Origin: Candidatus Omnitrophota bacterium
GTDB lineage: Bacteria > Omnitrophota > Gorgyraeia > Zapsychrales > Fredricksoniimonadaceae
NCBI GenBank assembly: GCA_903944345.1
Contig: CAJARJ010000002.1
Location: forward strand, 65,969 to 129,968
DNA length: 64,000 nucleotides
Direction of reading: 5' to 3'
Part shown: positions 56,959 to 63,999 of the stretch, in pieces
Numbering within the stretch: position 1 is the first letter of the stretch
Layout: each line of letters opens with the position of its first letter
Program-made: the position numbers and the translations under genes
The notes under the pieces: generated by a model
The model's database searches: none
Seen by the model: only the letters and a program-made list of their open reading frames with translations
What the model was told of the DNA's origin: nothing

Positions 56959-57717
56959 CTAATTTGTTGACACGTATCTGTTTCTGACAAAACAAAGCCC
57001 CGCCACAAAAAGAATGTAATACCCGCACACAATGCCGGTGGAAACCTGCGGCAGCGCCCAGACGCCACCCGGGACCAGACTGAAAAACCAGGCAGCGGCT
57101 ACCAGAAGATTGAGCGCAATATGCAGACTCCCCGCCACGAGCTCTCCCAGCGGAGAAAAAAGACTTCCTGTCATAACCACTCCCACTCCCAGCGCAGTAA
57201 CCAGCGTGGCCAAAGGCACCACCGGCAAATTGGCCAGCAGTCCAACAGGGGTCAAGTTCCCGAAAACATACGCAGTAATCCCGGCCGATCCGGCCCAGGC
57301 CGCCAGGGAAACAATCAGGCCTTCTCTGAGCCAGCGCAGTAAAGATGAACCGCCTTCTGTCCCTACCCACGGCAGAAGAAACATTGGAGAAACAAGAACA
57401 ATAGAAAGGACACAAATAAAAGAGAGCTGAAATCCAACATCAAAAAGCTGACGCGGATCTGCCAATGCCATAGCCAGCAATGCAAACCCGACCGTATTGA
57501 GCATGTCCTGATCGCGCTCGATCACAAAAGCCAGCAAAAAAACCGTACTCATCCACGCAGCGCGTACCACCGGCGGTTCTCCTCCAACCATAAATGCGTA
57601 AAACCAGGCCAGCAGCAAAGACAAAACAAAACTTGCCCGGCGGCCAACCCTGAGCGCACCCAGAAGCATGACAAATATCGAAACCAGCAGCGTAATATTG
57701 AGCCCACTGATGGCCAC
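56959..57717 (-). CDS. ComEC/Rec2 competence-domain membrane protein; probably the 3' remnant of a comEC gene split by the adjacent integrated element
   Basis: Polytopic Competence-domain-like sequence. The upstream end coincides with the GC drop and the recombinase 3' end, and the recombinase frame reads ~60 aa into this gene. Confidence 0.5.
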   Translation of the reverse strand: MAISGLNITLLVSIFVMLLGALRVGRRASFVLSLLLAWFYAFMVGGEPPVVRAAWMSTVFLLAFVIERDQDMLNTVGFALLAMALADPRQLFDVGFQLSFICVLSIVLVSPMFLLPWVGTEGGSSLLRWLREGLIVSLAAWAGSAGITAYVFGNLTPVGLLANLPVVPLATLVTALGVGVVMTGSLFSPLGELVAGSLHIALNLLVAAAWFFSLVPGGVWALPQVSTGIVCGYYILFVAGLCFVRNRYVSTN

Positions 57718-59312
57718 AATATGGGTCTTGGCAGGTCAATGCAGGGGAAAGAATCCTTGCTTTGGATGGATGCAACTGCTGGAAGGAAACAGTCAATGTC
57801 GATTTTACCGTCGATATTGACCTTTATTGAAGTATTCAGAAGCTGAAGCACAGCTTTTTTCTGCTGATATGTAAACTGCTTCATTCCCTCTTTGATTTTC
57901 TTGACATAATCAATCGCATTCTTTATCTCTTCTCTCTTATCTTCCTTATTCAATGACAATGTCAAGTCCTGCTTTGTTCTCTCAAGCGTCTCCCGATTCT
58001 TTCTTAATGAATCCATCTGCTCTCTTAACTGCTCAATTGTAATAATAGACTGCCTGTACGCTTCAAGAATCCTATGCTCTTCTTTATCCAAGCTGTCGAG
58101 AAGCATCGAAATCCTTGAAAGCTCTTTTTCAGCAGCTTCCCTGCCAAGTTTCTCGACATCCGGTTTGTTCCTAACAGCATGCTCAATCAAATCCGGGTTC
58201 TGAAATATCTTTACAACTTCGTTCCAGACTGAATCTTCAAGCTTTCTTGCCTGAACATATCTGAGCTTGCACTTCACAACCTTATCAAACCTGTTTTTTA
58301 CAAAGTGCGTGCACCGATAATACAGCATAAAATACGGGCCATACTTCTTGCCTTTCTTTACCGTCACCTGCTTATCTGCTGTCCCCGCAACAGTATTTCC
58401 GCAATCCCCGCATTTCACCATGCCTTGAAGAAGATAATCGTATTTTGCGTTTCGCTCTGAATAATTCCTCCTGTTTAAAAGAAGTTCCTGTGCGCGATAA
58501 AACTCTTCGTCAGAAACAATCCTCGGAACATCAACCAGAATCCAGTCCTTTGAGGGCTTAAGCCCTCCTGTCTTTGAGTCATGCTTATTCGCGTGCCATT
58601 TCCCAATATAGATTGAATCACGGAGAATGTCATGAACCGCATCCTCTCTCATCTCATGACCTTCTTTTGTCCTATAGCCAAGCTCTCTTAATTTTCTTGT
58701 GACCTTAAGGATTGAGAAATCAGGCTGGTTATAAAACTCAAAAGCTAACCTAACAACCTCTGCTTCTTTCTCATCAACAGTAATTTTCTTTGTCGCCTTA
58801 TCATATGAATACCCAAATCTTGCATTAGCAGAACCTGAATAATACCCTTCCTTCGCTCTCCTTAATTTCCCAAGCTTTGACCGTTCCATAAAAGTATTCC
58901 GCTCAAGTTCAGCAATCGAACCGAACAGCGATAGAACGAAATTTCCAAGATAAGTCGAGGTATCAAATGGCTCAGTGATTGAACGGATGCTGACGCTTGA
59001 TTTCTTTAGCTCATCGACTGTGTTTAGAAGATGCTTGTTGTTTCTGAAGAATCGGTCAACTCTGTAGACAAGGACAAGCTGAAACCTTCCTTCTCTTGAA
59101 TCTTCCATCAGTCTTTGAAACTGTGGTCTTTCAAAGCTCGTGCCTGAATAGCCGTCATCAATGTATTCGCCAAATACATCATACTTATTGTCTGCCGCAT
59201 GTTTTCTTAATAGCTCCATCTGGGAGGCAAGCGAGAAATTCGAAGTCTGCTCCTCTGTAGAGACACGGGCGTATAAAGCAACTTTTGTGATTTCCTTGTT
59301 CTCAGTCATCAC
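57549..59312 (-). CDS. large serine recombinase (integrase); annotated 3' end runs into host comEC sequence
   Basis: N-terminal resolvase catalytic domain (VALYARVSTEEQ...S..QMELL), recombinase domain, zinc ribbon (CGDCGN...C) and C-terminal coiled coil. The last ~60 codons are GC-rich host sequence. Confidence 0.85.
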   Translation of the reverse strand: MMTENKEITKVALYARVSTEEQTSNFSLASQMELLRKHAADNKYDVFGEYIDDGYSGTSFERPQFQRLMEDSREGRFQLVLVYRVDRFFRNNKHLLNTVDELKKSSVSIRSITEPFDTSTYLGNFVLSLFGSIAELERNTFMERSKLGKLRRAKEGYYSGSANARFGYSYDKATKKITVDEKEAEVVRLAFEFYNQPDFSILKVTRKLRELGYRTKEGHEMREDAVHDILRDSIYIGKWHANKHDSKTGGLKPSKDWILVDVPRIVSDEEFYRAQELLLNRRNYSERNAKYDYLLQGMVKCGDCGNTVAGTADKQVTVKKGKKYGPYFMLYYRCTHFVKNRFDKVVKCKLRYVQARKLEDSVWNEVVKIFQNPDLIEHAVRNKPDVEKLGREAAEKELSRISMLLDSLDKEEHRILEAYRQSIITIEQLREQMDSLRKNRETLERTKQDLTLSLNKEDKREEIKNAIDYVKKIKEGMKQFTYQQKKAVLQLLNTSIKVNIDGKIDIDCFLPAVASIQSKDSFPCIDLPRPILWPSVGSILRCWFRYLSCFWVRSGLAAGQVLFCLCCWPGFTHLWLEENRRWYALRG

Positions 59313-59524
59313 TGCCTGCCTGTTAGTTTTTTAAGCTTCTTTAAGTCTTCTTCTGTCCAATACCGATAATTATTCATCGGGTCACGCTTTGCTTTAGGCA
59401 CTTTTCCGGCATTCTCCCAGTTGTAATACGTCCACCGGGTTATGCAAAGCTCGCGCTCAATGTCTTCAATATAGTATCGTTCTTCCATACCGTATACTTT
59501 ACTATAGTTTGTAATAGTAGTCAA
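59309..59524 (-). CDS. small MerR/excisionase-family HTH protein (candidate recombination directionality factor)
   Basis: 71 aa; a central helix-turn-helix is plausible (ELCITRWTYYNWENAGKVPKAKRD); overlaps the recombinase start by 4 nt. Confidence 0.45.
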   Translation of the reverse strand: MTTITNYSKVYGMEERYYIEDIERELCITRWTYYNWENAGKVPKAKRDPMNNYRYWTEEDLKKLKKLTGRQ

Positions 59525-59532
59525 TCCATAGA

Positions 59533-59862
59533 TTACCCCCTGCCTTCATTCTTCTCTGATAACTCAATTGCATACAGAACAACCTTCACTATATCCTTTA
59601 GTAATGCCGGATTGTCCGACGTATGAACTTTCAAATTAGGTCTTAGAATCTGTTTTCTAGTCGGAAGAATAGCGATGACCTCCTTTAATATTTCTTCCCT
59701 GTCCTTGTCAGAAAAATATTTTGAGTCAGCCCATTCATCAAACAGCGACAGCAAGTCTCTATCCGGGAATTTACTTTCGTAATCCCGGAACTTTTCTGCC
59801 TGTTCTCTGATAAAGGCTTTGGATGCCATATTGGCAGTCTCCATAATCAAAACTTCGTCCAC
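59533..59862 (-). CDS. hypothetical protein (element cargo)
   Basis: 109-aa ORF in the AT-rich element, tightly packed with its neighbours; no recognisable motif. Confidence 0.4.
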   Translation of the reverse strand: MDEVLIMETANMASKAFIREQAEKFRDYESKFPDRDLLSLFDEWADSKYFSDKDREEILKEVIAILPTRKQILRPNLKVHTSDNPALLKDIVKVVLYAIELSEKNEGRG

Positions 59863-60488
59863 AGGTTCTTGTATTTTCTAAGCGAAAGAATGTAATTCTT
59901 GATGACGTTCTTCCCATTCCTTATTAGCTCGACTCTTGAAATGTATTCAAAGGAATGAGGAGCATATTTCCTTAACGCTTCGGTAAAATCAGCGAAAACT
60001 TCCTCACACTGTTCATAGTTGCGCTCGTTCCAACACTCGTTCATCACGTTATCAACGTAGTTGTTCAGCATTTCCCTTTTCCATGCTTCAGAGATTGCAG
60101 AAAGAACACTGCCAAGCCCGCCCTCAGTGCCGGATGTTGCACGAAACAAAGCCTCGTCAAAATCCAAAATCTGCTTTAAAAGCCGTTTTGCTTCTCCAAG
60201 GGCAAAATTATTGCCGGGGTCAAAACCATGAAACATTCTCATGTAGTAAAACCGCATGAAGTCAGCAAGAACGCTCTCAAACTCTTCGCTGGAATAGACG
60301 ACTGAACTTTTTAGCTGATACGCGCCCCGGACAGTGTCATGTGGCACTTCGATTTCTCTTACCAATCGTGCGGGGTGAAGCCTCTCAAGCATTCGTGCAA
60401 ATCTTCCGGGCATAAATTCCTCCTTGTTAAATCTGGTCAAAAATTTTCTTTTGCGGTTGAACTTTCTCAGCCTTCTTTTCGACGCCAT
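59847..60488 (-). CDS. hypothetical protein with highly basic N-terminus (element cargo)
   Basis: 213 aa; starts KRRLRKFNRKRKFLTRF then an acidic/aromatic globular region; no known motif. Confidence 0.4.
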   Translation of the reverse strand: MASKRRLRKFNRKRKFLTRFNKEEFMPGRFARMLERLHPARLVREIEVPHDTVRGAYQLKSSVVYSSEEFESVLADFMRFYYMRMFHGFDPGNNFALGEAKRLLKQILDFDEALFRATSGTEGGLGSVLSAISEAWKREMLNNYVDNVMNECWNERNYEQCEEVFADFTEALRKYAPHSFEYISRVELIRNGKNVIKNYILSLRKYKNLWTKF

Positions 60489-62733
60489 GTTTCATGTAAT
60501 ACTTTTCAAAGCACATTGCCTTAATTTGCTCAGACAAGTCTTCTCTGTCAGAGCCAGGCCTTGGAGTGTTGATTTTCACAACCTCGTTATCACGGCAGAC
60601 AAATGCTGTGAACGGTTTTAGTTTCGTAAACTCTTCCGGCGGGATTCTTGTCGATTTTGAGATTTCCTCCGCATCTTCCCGGCGGAGCTTGAAATAAATC
60701 TGAGTGCCTGCAATCGCAAGAACATCCCTTGTCTTGCCCTCGACCTGACTCAAATATTGATGCGCAAAAATTACAGAAAGTTGATACTTAGATAATGCCG
60801 ATACCTGAATATCTAAGTCACCCGGCCCCATATAAAATTCGTCTTTTATCAGGGTGAACGGTTTTCTCTCGTGGAATGGAATGTTCGCTCGCTGAATTAT
60901 GAGATTGTTTACAAACGAATCGAACAAGCCCGCGAGAAGCGATGCTCTTTGTTTTCCGATTGAGCCGCAGGAAAGATTGACGAGACAAAGCTTGCCATTC
61001 TCCATTATGTCCTTAAGAGAAATCTTGTTTTTATCGTCTTCAAGTGTAAAGAATCTTAGACTGCCCTCATCGAGCAAGAGATGACTAAGCCTGCTTAAAA
61101 CAGGAGCCATCGAGTCATAATTTGAATACTGGATTTCATCGAGAAAATTAATGACAATCGGATGGGTTATTTTTGATTTAATTTTTTCACGGATTACTTT
61201 TCCCTTTGCGCTTTTTGAAAGAAGAAGTCTTAAATCAGCGAAATTGATTTCCGGAACGCTCGCATAAATATAAAACACGCACGAAAAGCCGAACGCCATC
61301 TTTGGCCCAAACCAAGCCTGACTATTCTTTGTGCTGGTGATTGTTTCCATGCTTGCGCTCATGTCATCACTGAACTTTCCAGCTCCGACAAGAGAAGCAT
61401 TAAGATTTTCTCTAATGGTCAACAACGGGGTCAGACCTTTTATCCCAAAATCAATGAAAACAACCTTACTAATTAAATGAACAGGGATGCGCGACATAAT
61501 GCCCGAATTCAAATCACCTTGAAAATCAACGACCATGACTGACTCGCCATTCTCAACTTTCTTAATAGCCAAATCAGCCAGTAAGACTGACTTTCCTGCA
61601 CGGGGCGCACCCATGATATGGATGTGCGGATTGAATCGCTGGACTGGTGAAAAGACACCAACCCCCTGCCCGCAAGCCCATGTCCCAAGTAGCACGTCAG
61701 ACTTTTCTGCTGTCTTCTTTGGATAATCTCCGGCAGGAACTCTTAAAAAAATATCATCAAACTCCTTATCTCCCATGATACCGACAGGCATATGAAGAAT
61801 GCCAGCAAGCTCATGCGAATTGACAAGAAAGCCAGAATGAAATGACACGCGGTCATTTGCCATCTGCAATATTGCTTCCGGGGTGAAATCTTTTCTAATC
61901 AGGAAAGCTTTATCGTCGTAAACGTAATTCGCTATGAAGGCATTAATAGATGCTTCGCATGTTATGTCAGGGAGTAGAAGGCGAAAACTGCACGAGTAAT
62001 ACGACCTGAATTCCGGGCTTTTGTATTCAAGCTTTTTGTTTACCGACCCTGCCTGTTCGCTGGGACTTGTCACGCGGTCAATCCCGTGAATTGCCTTCCA
62101 TTCAGTATCAACGCATTCTGAAACTATGGCATGTACTGCTCCTGAAAGTCCCATGATTAGAACCTGGTAGATTCCCTTCTTATCCTCAGGAATTTGAAGG
62201 AACATCTGAGCAAGAAGATTAAGAGGACTTACGATAAAACCGCGATATGAGCTCATGTTTTTATAGAACGGGGCTGAAATATCAGGGACAAAGTCATAGA
62301 CGACAAGACTCCCTTCATTCTTTTCCGGTTCAACAATCTCCGTATGAACATGTGAAAAGAAAGTCTTTACTGCTGCATCAACAATCCGGATATCCGACTC
62401 CTCACCATAAAAACTGATAAGGATTTCTTTGCAGTTGCCCCTAATTTCAAAGACAATTTGCGAAGCTGTATTGTGTAGACTTTCAGCAAATTGTTCCGAG
62501 AGCAGGAAGAAATTCTCAACATCTGCTTTCGCAGGATAGACATTCAGCGTCTTTGGATTCTTGTATGAGAATTCAGTTACAGGAGAAAGAAGCCTCGGCG
62601 TCAGATTAACTGGCTTATCTGAAACCTCGTGCGTGCAGGCATTCATGTTATTGTTCTGAAGCTCACACAAAGACATCTTCTTCAGCGATTCTTCGACGAA
62701 GTATTTAAGAAAATGCGAACAAGGAACTGACAT
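60427..62733 (-). CDS. P-loop NTPase of the FtsK/TraD(VirD4)/HerA-DUF87 type with a ~370-aa unique N-terminal region
   Basis: Walker A IMGAPRAGKS near residue 385 and Walker B-like TLIKDEFY near residue 640. No N-terminal TM segments. Confidence 0.65.
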   Translation of the reverse strand: MSVPCSHFLKYFVEESLKKMSLCELQNNNMNACTHEVSDKPVNLTPRLLSPVTEFSYKNPKTLNVYPAKADVENFFLLSEQFAESLHNTASQIVFEIRGNCKEILISFYGEESDIRIVDAAVKTFFSHVHTEIVEPEKNEGSLVVYDFVPDISAPFYKNMSSYRGFIVSPLNLLAQMFLQIPEDKKGIYQVLIMGLSGAVHAIVSECVDTEWKAIHGIDRVTSPSEQAGSVNKKLEYKSPEFRSYYSCSFRLLLPDITCEASINAFIANYVYDDKAFLIRKDFTPEAILQMANDRVSFHSGFLVNSHELAGILHMPVGIMGDKEFDDIFLRVPAGDYPKKTAEKSDVLLGTWACGQGVGVFSPVQRFNPHIHIMGAPRAGKSVLLADLAIKKVENGESVMVVDFQGDLNSGIMSRIPVHLISKVVFIDFGIKGLTPLLTIRENLNASLVGAGKFSDDMSASMETITSTKNSQAWFGPKMAFGFSCVFYIYASVPEINFADLRLLLSKSAKGKVIREKIKSKITHPIVINFLDEIQYSNYDSMAPVLSRLSHLLLDEGSLRFFTLEDDKNKISLKDIMENGKLCLVNLSCGSIGKQRASLLAGLFDSFVNNLIIQRANIPFHERKPFTLIKDEFYMGPGDLDIQVSALSKYQLSVIFAHQYLSQVEGKTRDVLAIAGTQIYFKLRREDAEEISKSTRIPPEEFTKLKPFTAFVCRDNEVVKINTPRPGSDREDLSEQIKAMCFEKYYMKHGVEKKAEKVQPQKKIFDQI

Positions 62734-62742
62734 AACCTTCTC

Positions 62743-63516
62743 CTATATGATTGCTTTCCCCGTTTCACCCGCACCCGGCACAGACCAGATGTTTGCCTTT
62801 ATTCCCGATTGAATCAGTTGCGGCATGGTGGTTATCCAGATGAACCCATCCCTGTCTACCGACGATATAATTCTGGATATGGATTTAAGCCTAGCTGTGT
62901 TGTTTGCAATGAAGAGAACTCTAAAACGGGTAAAGTTACAGCTGAACCATTCTTCATATTCTTTCGTCTCGTTCTCCTGAAACATCGAGACGTATTTGAG
63001 AAATTTTTTCTCAATATCCTCGTTATAGGAAGGGGCGGGCGAAGATATAATTTCCGTTCCTGAACAAATTTCCAGAAGGAATAATGCATGCTTGTTGTTC
63101 CGCTTTAGAACAAAAACGCCGTCCGGAATTATCTTGAGTTGATATCTCTCTCTCAAAATATGTTCCGGCATCACCTCGCATTCAACATCACCGCCTTTAA
63201 ACTGGCTATAGATATCGACGAGAGTCTTAATGTTTTCCTGCTGGTGCCCAAGCTTTAAGGATATGCGGGGCTTTGAGTACCGGACGCCAAAAGACTTGGC
63301 GCAATCTTCAGTGAGGTAAAATAGATGCGCCGACTTCCCCACGTTGACACTCGGCAACATGACAAAAGACAATAGACCGCCGCTGACAAGCTTTCTCATA
63401 CGACGCTGAACTGCCTTGATGTGCATACCAAACAACTCAGATATATGCCCGGAAGAAAGGCAATGAAACCTCGCTATGAAACTTAATATTTGTTTGTCCC
63501 GTTCCTGTAGCCTCAT
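62743..63516 (-). CDS. replication-relaxation (Replic_Relax) family wHTH protein
   Basis: N-terminal LQERDKQILSFIARFHCLSSGHISELFG...AVQRRMRKLVSGGLL matches the Replic_Relax wHTH pattern; 257 aa. Confidence 0.6.
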   Translation of the reverse strand: MRLQERDKQILSFIARFHCLSSGHISELFGMHIKAVQRRMRKLVSGGLLSFVMLPSVNVGKSAHLFYLTEDCAKSFGVRYSKPRISLKLGHQQENIKTLVDIYSQFKGGDVECEVMPEHILRERYQLKIIPDGVFVLKRNNKHALFLLEICSGTEIISSPAPSYNEDIEKKFLKYVSMFQENETKEYEEWFSCNFTRFRVLFIANNTARLKSISRIISSVDRDGFIWITTMPQLIQSGIKANIWSVPGAGETGKAII

Positions 63517-63530
63517 TGCCCTTCCTTTCC

Positions 63531-63779
63531 TTAGAATTGTTCTTCGTCCAACGACAGTTTGAATGGCTCAAAAACAAAAACTCCACCAATCCCGCCACAA
63601 CACATGCATTTAATTGCAGTAGGTTTCTGCACCCACTGCTCCCCGCCAAAAATGTCAGCCTTTATTTCTACCCCCATATGCACCTGCCATCCGGAACCAT
63701 TGCAAATCGAACATCTTTTCCACTTATGCATAAACGCCTCCTTAGAAAACGATTCGTTCTTTTCCTGTGTCACAATCAA
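63531..63779 (-). CDS. small CxxCxGxG zinc-finger protein (paralog A)
   Basis: 82 aa with CSICNGSGW and CMCCGGIGG, a DnaJ-type CxxCxGxG pair. Confidence 0.4.
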   Translation of the reverse strand: MIVTQEKNESFSKEAFMHKWKRCSICNGSGWQVHMGVEIKADIFGGEQWVQKPTAIKCMCCGGIGGVFVFEPFKLSLDEEQF

Positions 63780-63999
63780 CTTTCACAATCTGCCATCCCC
63801 TGCCATGACAAACACTGCATGGACGAACATGAGGCGTTCCACAAAATTCATTCGATGAATATGACCTTCTTGATACTCCGCTTACTTCAAAGCCCTTGCC
63901 GTTACAGCAATAACAGTCACGTTTCTCGTCGTATTCGAACATAAATTGCCTCCATTTTCTTGAATCGGTTAATTTGATTTTTTCCCTCTTACGCATCAA
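63742..63999 (-). CDS. small CxxCxGxG zinc-finger protein (paralog B)
   Basis: 85 aa with CYCCNGKGF and CSVCHGRGW. Overlaps paralog A by 38 nt in a different frame; start lies at the window edge. Confidence 0.35.
   Translation of the reverse strand: MMRKREKIKLTDSRKWRQFMFEYDEKRDCYCCNGKGFEVSGVSRRSYSSNEFCGTPHVRPCSVCHGRGWQIVKVDCDTGKERIVF

Follow-up and report, generated by a model that had tools for sequence, protein, structure and literature searches.

What does a compact block of DNA-processing genes do beside an interrupted host gene in an uncultured diderm bacterium: is it freight carried by a mobile element, or the machinery by which that element travels? The question is raised by a stretch of 64,000 nucleotides (nt) from Candidatus Omnitrophota bacterium (assembly GCA_903944345.1, contig CAJARJ010000002.1, positions 65,969 to 129,968 of the forward strand), called the window here, in which eight co-oriented minus-strand genes at 57.5-63.9 kb encode, among others, a Replic_Relax protein, a large soluble ATPase and, at one end, a serine recombinase. 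An initial annotation, made without database searches, had described most of this block as element cargo and had likened its central pair of genes to Gram-positive-type modules for transfer and replication. The analysis reported here points, with chances put at about even, to an integrative mobilizable element, an island of at least 32 kb in comEC, with the block at 57.5-63.9 kb as its transfer backbone. All eight open reading frames (ORFs) were confirmed as minus-strand features, with coordinates that agree exactly or closely with those first assigned to them, and the diderm nature of the host is borne out by the adjacent genes for LptE, BamD/YfiO and MurJ. The combination of a Replic_Relax winged helix-turn-helix (wHTH) protein with an ATPase of the FtsK/TraD/HerA superfamily can still be regarded as a transfer-type DNA-processing module on an integrated element. 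The label 'Gram-positive-type' had to be dropped, since MOBC/Replic_Relax proteins also occur in Gram-negative CloDF13 (PMC12857230) and the close relatives are all diderm metagenome-assembled genomes (MAGs).

Recognition of the first of these proteins as a Replic_Relax member was correct: it scores 35.2 bits against PF13814 (gathering cut-off 25.3), and the gathering score is passed by 8/8 orthologues, with a best E-value of 1.5e-14. PF13814 has the PD-(D/E)XK fold (PMC3424549) and is the MOBC relaxase family, MobC in CONJscan (PMC5357655; PMC12857230). An N-terminal wHTH is indicated by a match to HTH_24 over amino acids (aa) 4-48 (E 3.5e-3; E<=0.01 in five of the eight orthologues), and residues K34, R38-R39, R41 and L43 of this region are invariant in the Replic_Relax alignment; a wHTH also stands at the N-terminus of TraX of pAD1. 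Invariant residues of the family further include H91, N95, P117-E118-H119, P131-D132, E149-x-C151 and G153-T154-E155. Within the PD-(D/E)XK triad, P131-D132 and E149 are invariant, the lysine position is taken by the invariant C151, and K171 is invariant downstream. The protein is best described as a putative MOBC-type relaxase or nicking initiator.

The ATPase gene starts 9 nt from the Replic_Relax gene, a pairing that is collinear in eight loci. Its P-loop had been read correctly, with the Walker A motif GAPRAGKS and the Walker B motif LIKDE; across 21 sequences, residues G375, R378, G380, K381 and S382 of the former and I629, D631 and E632 of the latter are invariant. The reported lack of a transmembrane helix also held, no 19-residue window having a Kyte-Doolittle hydropathy above 1.6. 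An AlphaFold2 (AF2) model of the full-length protein, built from the 21-sequence alignment with a predicted local distance difference test (pLDDT) score of 80.6, places an all-alpha insertion (helices 451-553) between the two Walker motifs. Foldseek matches this model to TrwK/VirB4 (E 3e-14) and its C-terminal half to TrwB, with a target-normalised template-modelling score (TM-score) of 0.64 and a root-mean-square deviation of about 5 A (E 1e-10); HerA and VirB4 also match the C-terminal half by fold, the HerA defence complexes 8j4u, 8xav and 9c1m included. The PDB sequence profile gave two solved relatives only, TrwB at E 1.4e-3 and HerA as the weaker match at E 0.11. In Pfam the ATPase itself has only sub-threshold matches to AAA_14 and HerA_C, and none to CagE_TrbE_VirB (PF03135); its distant homologues P0027, P0028, P0034 and P0036 exceed the cut-offs for TrwB_AAD_bind, T4SS-DNA_transf and TraG-D_C. 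A tblastn search of plasmids gave matches in the ATPase domain only, at 20-28% identity, to annotated type IV coupling proteins (T4CPs), and the search of phages gave a single weak match. The motor thus appears, from profile and modelled fold, to resemble a TrwB-type coupling protein, and it may function in coupling.

A different use for the same genes would be replication or maintenance, in which the Replic_Relax protein would be a nicking initiator and the ATPase, with its small neighbour p188, would serve as a DNA pump or helicase-like motor in copying or partitioning the excised circle, with no transfer between cells. Some family members have been linked to the replication of plasmids, hence the name 'replication-relaxation' (PMC3424549, table entry 119), and the Replic_Relax protein matches phrog_9381, 'replication initiation by nicking' (1.4e-5), and phrog_2190, 'replication initiation protein'; against plasmid proteins it gave one marginal tblastn match only. 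Moreover, the distant locus L015 has an AEP primase in place of Replic_Relax, and in papers on Bacillus phages the genes for FtsK-like proteins and Replic_Relax are assigned to plasmid maintenance (PMC9658697, PMC7685451). However, the FtsK/HerA/T4CP clade is not known for replicative helicases, the nearest fold and sequence matches of the ATPase are conjugation ATPases, and the ArdA and RadC genes of the island suggest conjugative arrival. A purely replicative role is therefore considered rather unlikely, although the two roles are compatible, as some relaxases perform both.

The first 345 residues of the ATPase had been described as Cys/His-rich and without a recognisable motif, and neither description stood. 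With 7 Cys (2.0%) and 10 His (2.9%) in 345 aa the domain is not notably rich in either residue, and only H201, H314 and C354 are invariant among the Cys and His of the ATPase family; moreover, the domain is related to DUF8128 (hhalign 90%) and has a fold like that of the VirB4 N-terminal domain (NTD). Modelled alone by AF2 (pLDDT 83.3, predicted TM-score 0.85), it forms two alpha/beta ferredoxin-like units and carries the conserved motif NSHELxxxLHxP. The top nine PDB matches in Foldseek are all TrwK/VirB4 (E 2.7e-5 to 3e-3), with query-normalised TM-scores of 0.37-0.42. Stronger fold matches were found in BFVD among uncharacterised proteins of the Bacillus phages Slash, JL and G, of which the best, Slash gp94 (E 3.9e-14), is only marginal by sequence (hhalign probability 45%). 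Slash gp94 (551 aa) belongs to a small group of plus-strand genes (L032 14018-17734, genes 90-95) close to an integrase/recombinase gene, and the proteins of this group have no Pfam match.

A profile of the N-terminal domain retrieves 322 cluster representatives (E<=1e-3), the majority of them 800-830 aa in length, and its alignment matches those of the DUF8128-bearing proteins P0027 (hhalign probability 90.3%, E 1.5e-6, 247 columns) and P0031 (90.6%). Because the precomputed Pfam field is empty for close homologues, the domain is regarded as a divergent relative of DUF8128 and not as a direct match. It is accordingly no orphan, but a divergent member of DUF8128 (PF26449) with a VirB4-NTD-like fold; it thus falls in a catalogued domain, although one that is itself of unknown function. 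Beside this stands the locus of P0031, which combines DUF8128 with a T4CP-like ATPase on a JGI contig (L035 5202-12355): its neighbours are PrgI, TraC-like and VirB4-like genes and RadC, and dnaA and dnaN are close by. Its gene content is that of a minimal Gram-positive-type secretion locus, with the DUF8128 protein as the presumed coupling protein.

About 25 full-length homologues of the ATPase, at 45-59% identity, are present among 5.8 billion clusters, and a genome collection holds 16 ATPase loci, 15 of them in MAGs. The hosts include Smithella, a deltaproteobacterium, Auribacterota, an alphaproteobacterium and Victivallales, with more distant loci in Hydrogenedentota, Phycisphaerae and Kordia. 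In 8/8 close loci, which belong to uncultured diderm lineages, the order Replic_Relax-ATPase-p188 is kept, upstream of the integrase. The third member of this trio, p188, is collinear with the ATPase in 8/8 close loci, has an invariant GG motif and no transmembrane helix, and gave no match in Pfam, PHROGs, PADLOC, NCBIfam or the PDB sequence profile. Two p188 paralogues lie upstream of the ATPase gene in the distant loci L015 and L016, and the P0026 locus has ORFs of p188-like size at the corresponding position. Judged by synteny, p188 is probably a fixed partner of the ATPase and may have a role in coupling. In addition, proteins with AEP-TOTE primase domains are encoded near distant or related ATPase loci (L015 13678-14760, L008 21375-22310), suggesting that in some relatives a primase-type replication module, and not Replic_Relax, accompanies the ATPase and p188.

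What surrounds the trio is far less constant. The integrase is a serine recombinase in the window and in L005, L006, L011 and L014; L010 has a Xis-like helix-turn-helix (HTH) protein and an apparent tyrosine integrase, and L012 and L013 have integrase-like ORFs, the integrases of these three loci being identified by N-terminal sequence only, without a domain search. L008 has a serine recombinase about 6 kb downstream, in opposite orientation. Upstream, the genes vary by locus and include NACHT with VWA-PP2C-FHA-kinase, E2/ThiF/JAB, and nSTAND3/DUF87 ATPase sets; directly upstream of the trio stands either a VWA-PP2C-FHA-Ser/Thr kinase set or an E2/ThiF(E1)/JAB-like set (L006/L011/L013; L008/L010/L012). 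By gene content, these upstream sets appear to be recurrent defence-like cargo modules. Since the trio is invariant and proximal to the integrase while the integrase type and the upstream genes change, it is regarded as a life-cycle module and not as cargo, a term that fits the variable upstream genes and not, as first proposed, the block itself.

The same comparison bears on an anti-phage role, which the initial annotation had raised by pointing to HerA-like ATPases in defence systems. In such a scheme the HerA/T4CP-like ATPase, the PD-(D/E)XK Replic_Relax protein and p188 as adaptor would act by analogy with HerA-nuclease pairs or with mad8 of MADS. PADLOC does match the ATPase to mad8 (1.5e-9), as it matches the small HTH protein of the block to mad1 (2.5e-8); HerA defence complexes are among the fold matches, and the cargo of the island and of its relatives is rich in defence genes. 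Nevertheless, TrwB and VirB4 outscore HerA, mad1 is a generic regulator whose deletion had a limited effect in the MADS study (10.1101/2023.03.30.534895), and it is the defence genes that vary while the trio remains in place beside the integrase. With its backbone position conserved, the ATPase is very unlikely to be a defence protein. MADS as such, for which mad6, mad7 and mad8 are mandatory, was rejected, mad6 and mad7 being missing from the 18 island proteins scanned (the block and 10 others), and the block itself having mad8-like and mad1-like matches only (10.1101/2023.03.30.534895).

The integrase end of the unit, comprising the recombinase gene (57549-59309) and the comEC junction, belongs to the same unit as the genes described at the outset but had been left outside their range. 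The recombinase has the domains Resolvase (1.2e-37), Recombinase (1.9e-16) and Zn_ribbon_recom (5.4e-11) and matches the integrase family phrog_95 (2e-113). The small HTH protein upstream of it, rightly noticed as Xis-like, matches, in addition to mad1, phrog_66, 'excisionase and transcriptional regulator' (5.8e-4); MerR_1 and HTH_3 are sub-threshold, and the Smithella orthologue has precomputed MerR_1/HTH_17 matches. The gene of the HTH protein shares 1 nt with that of the recombinase, stop codon overlapping ATG, and its product is a probable excision directionality factor or regulator, as far as these matches indicate.

The island sits in comEC and interrupts this host gene. The comEC fragment matches PF03772 (1.4e-44) over profile positions 26-266 of 270, its frame ends at a stop at 57741-57743, and the remnant consists of the Competence domain only, ending at 56959, with no metallo-beta-lactamase domain downstream. 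A shift in guanine-plus-cytosine (GC) content at about 57.6-57.7 kb marks the junction: GC is about 0.42 in the block and 0.51 in adjacent host DNA, the low-GC segment starting at about 57.7 kb. The recombinase ORF crosses this boundary (within 57549-57745), with about 523 native codons followed by about 63 codons read out-of-frame in comEC DNA, and the C-terminus of the integrase would therefore differ between the integrated and the excised states, because the end of its ORF is host comEC DNA. An imperfect 12+12-nt palindrome, ATATTGTGGCCA-TCAG-TGGGCTCAATAT, lies at 57695-57722, where comEC encodes IVAISGLNI, and may provide a pair of att half-sites or the crossover region.

The island was read over positions 2021-34233 of the ENA contig k141_428928, which contains the window, with precomputed Pfam calls. 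Low GC and foreign genes extend at least 32 kb from the junction, and GC is still low at contig position 2021, up to which neither the far end of the island nor the 5' half of comEC was reached. Genes of defence type, RadC and ArdA lie to the right of the window (L034 1-9000 / L029 1-8900, equivalent to contig positions 2021-19500). The defence-type genes encode a Lamassu-like LmuB ATPase (PADLOC 8e-28), with an MPN635_N protein ahead of it, a type II methyltransferase together with a restriction enzyme of BsuBI/PstI type, PDC-M14A and an AbiJ-like protein. ArdA and RadC are typical features of conjugatively acquired DNA. A metagenome scan with an ArdA fragment found only relatives that are 73% identical and have a rearranged gene order; the related contig L025 has the genes in rearranged order. 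Besides the terminal serine recombinase, the island contains two genes for tyrosine recombinases (L029 5618-6313, 10774-11832), which suggests a composite island built by accretion. A second ATPase set, in which a 474-aa DUF87/TrwB_AAD_bind-like ATPase (PADLOC mad8 5e-14, HerA 1e-9) is flanked by two small proteins (L029 2977-5298), recurs in the Smithella element and in L008 (L005 6130-8424, L008 1-468).

Over positions 2021-34233 the Pfam calls include no type IV secretion or mating-pair-formation genes (VirB4 with a channel) and no capsid, portal or terminase. A prophage or phage satellite was rejected, there being no structural or packaging genes in the 32 kb and no relative in IMG/VR. The island also encodes an outer-membrane beta-barrel protein and an M48-like membrane protein. 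The former, a 631-aa polytopic membrane protein of the island and the second ATPase set allow a novel minimal self-transfer apparatus to be envisaged, which would make the island an integrative conjugative element of a new mating-pair-formation type, with the 768-aa protein as a divergent VirB4, the 474-aa DUF87 ATPase as coupling protein and the membrane proteins as channel. TrwK/VirB4 is indeed the best fold match for both the full-length ATPase and its N-terminal domain. However, no VirB3, B6, B8, B9, B10 or pilin families are called over the 32 kb, other close loci are without those membrane genes within 10 kb, CagE_TrbE_VirB is not matched, and the neighbours of the ATPase, p188 and Replic_Relax, are soluble; self-transfer of this kind is scarcely probable.

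The course of events envisaged for an integrative mobilizable element begins with excision, in which the HTH protein and the serine recombinase would release the island as a circle. The MOBC-type Replic_Relax relaxase would bind and nick an origin of transfer on this circle, and possibly prime rolling-circle copying. The soluble TrwB-like ATPase, probably with p188, would then recognise the relaxase nucleoprotein and feed the DNA to the type IV secretion channel of a co-resident conjugative element, the VirB4-NTD-like/DUF8128 domain serving as a docking surface in place of a membrane anchor. In the recipient, the recombinase would put the island back into comEC. The reading as a mobilizable element is supported by the occurrence of PF13814 in 8/8 orthologues, the TrwB-like motor, the layout of relaxase gene beside coupling-protein gene and the homology of both to gp200 and gp201 of a Bacillus phage, discussed below; moreover, P0031 lies beside PrgI, TraC-like and VirB4-like genes, the trio lies by the integrase in 8/8 loci, and the island has ArdA and RadC and no capsid or terminase.

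Several observations weigh against mobilization. For the relaxase, the residue at the expected catalytic lysine of the PD-(D/E)XK triad appears, from the alignment, to be a cysteine (E149-x-C151), and no convincing direct or inverted repeats of an origin of transfer were found in the intergenic regions. The ATPase itself does not reach the T4CP cut-offs of Pfam (T4SS-DNA_transf, TrwB_AAD_bind, TraG-D_C) and is predicted to be without a membrane anchor; deletion of the transmembrane domain inactivates MobB, TrwB and PcfC (PMC7431656). The host has no known type IV secretion system that could act as helper, and transfer genes may be present in cis at the unread far end of the island. Among contigs that carry the flanking 714-aa host protein, 11/11 carry the island, with no empty comEC site (attB) and no intact comEC allele among them, and mobility is thus unobserved. 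Finally, deletion of the related operon in phage 0305phi8-36 caused no detectable growth defect (PMC3357382). The missing anchor is nevertheless compatible with T4CP function, a class of T4CPs that have no transmembrane domain being recognised (PMC7431656).

It is also conceivable, though quite unlikely, that the DUF8128 ATPase and p188, as its obligate partner, form a distinct and unrecognised soluble machine for coupling or translocation, whose VirB4-like N-terminal domain would dock on the inner-membrane complex of a foreign type IV secretion system, or which would act without such a system. If so, an undescribed route of DNA export would be common to the defence islands found in uncultured diderm phyla and to the related operons of Bacillus phages.

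The remaining genes of the block concern its layout and gene calls (Table 1). Spacers within the block measure 8-17 nt, or genes overlap by 1 nt, and such tight spacing is consistent with an operon. An ORF first read as 213 aa is 188 aa in the source gene calls (59847-60413), which removes its overlap with the ATPase gene, and an ORF of 109 aa is 98 aa in those calls. The protein of 98 aa, p98, is poorly conserved, only L008 matching it, partially, among related loci, and gave no match in family scans of Pfam, PHROG and PADLOC.

Table 1. Features of the integrase-proximal block and its junction with comEC, in window coordinates.
Feature	Position	Strand	Basis or remark
Mini zinc-finger protein 2, 66 aa	63742..63942	-	ATG after GGAGG; source gene call
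Mini zinc-finger protein 1, 66 aa	63531..63731	-	ATG after AAGGAGG; source gene call
Putative Replic_Relax / MOBC-type protein, 257 aa	62743..63516	-	PF13814
Soluble ATPase, 768 aa	60427..62733	-	AF2, Foldseek, hhalign, PDB sequence profile
ATPase N-terminal domain, aa 1-345	61699..62733	-	AF2, Foldseek, hhalign
Walker A motif GAPRAGKS of ATPase	61588..61611	-	Translation, alignment
Walker B motif LIKDE of ATPase	60838..60852	-	Translation, alignment
p188, 188 aa, probable ATPase partner	59847..60413	-	Synteny
p98, 98 aa, small protein	59533..59829	-	Gene call
Small HTH protein, 71 aa (59 aa from internal ATG)	59309..59524	-	PADLOC, PHROG
Large serine recombinase (integrase)	57549..59309	-	Pfam, phrog_95
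Island/comEC junction region	57695..57745	.	Frame analysis, GC shift
Host comEC 3' fragment	56959..57738	-	PF03772

At the upstream end of the block, two small zinc-finger ORFs had been thought to be paralogues that overlap in different frames. The overlap proved to be an artefact of taking the longest ORFs, the real genes being two tandem ORFs of 66 aa with strong ribosome-binding sites: GGAGG and AAGGAGG lie 6-8 nt 5' of the internal ATGs at 63942 and 63731, respectively, and a 10-nt spacer separates the stop of mini 2 from the start of mini 1. Each 66-aa protein has two CxxCxGxG motifs. Their paralogy is weak (BLASTP E 4e-5 to 2e-4), with similarity limited to the motif regions, and the family DnaJ_CXXCXGXG matches mini 2 below threshold (E 0.022). 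A tblastn search of the related loci gave no match for either, and the two mini-proteins appear, on this comparison, to be element-specific and to lie outside the conserved backbone.

If the island is indeed a mobilizable element with its own relaxase and coupling protein, defence islands in Auribacterota, Smithella/Desulfobacterota, Victivallales and others would move by means of borrowed conjugation machines, and a first functional context would be available for Pfam DUF8128 and for the p188 family. It would also tie these islands to the 'DNA translocation operons' known from Bacillus phages and unexplained since 2012. With comEC interrupted, natural transformation is inactivated as well, a possible factor in conflicts between mobile elements.

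Among known systems, the block described here is not without relatives. A relaxase gene beside a coupling-protein gene is the canonical layout of a DNA-transfer (Dtr) module (PMC12857230), and CloDF13 belongs to the rare MOBC1 group, mobilizable plasmids with a coupling-protein gene of their own (PMC7431656). As in the island, the PD-(D/E)XK-type MOBC relaxase of CloDF13, MobC, is encoded beside an element-borne coupling ATPase, MobB, in a Gram-negative host; CloDF13 is not self-transmissible and must borrow a type IV secretion system, as the island would (PMC12857230, PMC7431656). The two differ in that the transmembrane domain of MobB is essential, whereas the island ATPase has a 345-aa DUF8128/VirB4-NTD-like domain instead, and in that CloDF13 is a plasmid, whereas the islands are integrated with a serine or tyrosine integrase and have p188 as a third conserved gene; in sequence, moreover, the island proteins are only very distantly similar to those of plasmids.

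The relaxase-ATPase pair is, moreover, remotely homologous to a described phage module, the 'DNA translocation operon' of Bacillus phage 0305phi8-36, which comprises the MobC-like relaxase gp200 and gp201, a coupling ATPase that has no transmembrane helix (Pathria et al., PMC3357382). Together with the assignment of the ATPase N-terminus to a catalogued domain, this homology goes part of the way to the refutation that the initial annotation had set for itself. Relatives of this operon occur in SPO1, GBSV1 and Gamma-like phages, and in temperate phages it adjoins integration genes (PMC3357382). By hhalign, gp201 aligns with the island ATPase family at a probability of 96% (E 3e-9, 425 columns) and gp200 with the Replic_Relax family at 79% (E 1.6e-5); gp201 has 802 aa and the island ATPase 768 aa, both without a transmembrane helix. 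The phage operons, however, belong to phages of Firmicutes, have the ATPase before the relaxase and include VirB6-like and MreB-like genes, whereas the island has a diderm host, the order relaxase-ATPase-p188 and no virion genes in 32 kb.

Streptococcal integrative mobilizable elements likewise combine an integrase with a non-canonical relaxase and a coupling ATPase, have exchangeable integration modules and in a few cases use PF13814/MOBC (PMC5357655). They differ in their Firmicute hosts and in a coupling protein that is mostly of the TcpA/FtsK type with PF01580, whereas the island motor is VirD4/TrwB-like and is joined to DUF8128. TrwK/VirB4 of R388 shares the two-domain architecture and provides the best Foldseek matches for both domains of the island ATPase, although the TM-scores of 0.37-0.42, the lack of a CagE_TrbE_VirB signal and the lack of VirB3/B6/B8 neighbours set it apart. 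Current concepts are thus not overturned by the island; it extends the scheme of a MOBC relaxase with its own coupling protein, to which the uncharacterised DUF8128 N-terminal domain and p188 would be the new additions.

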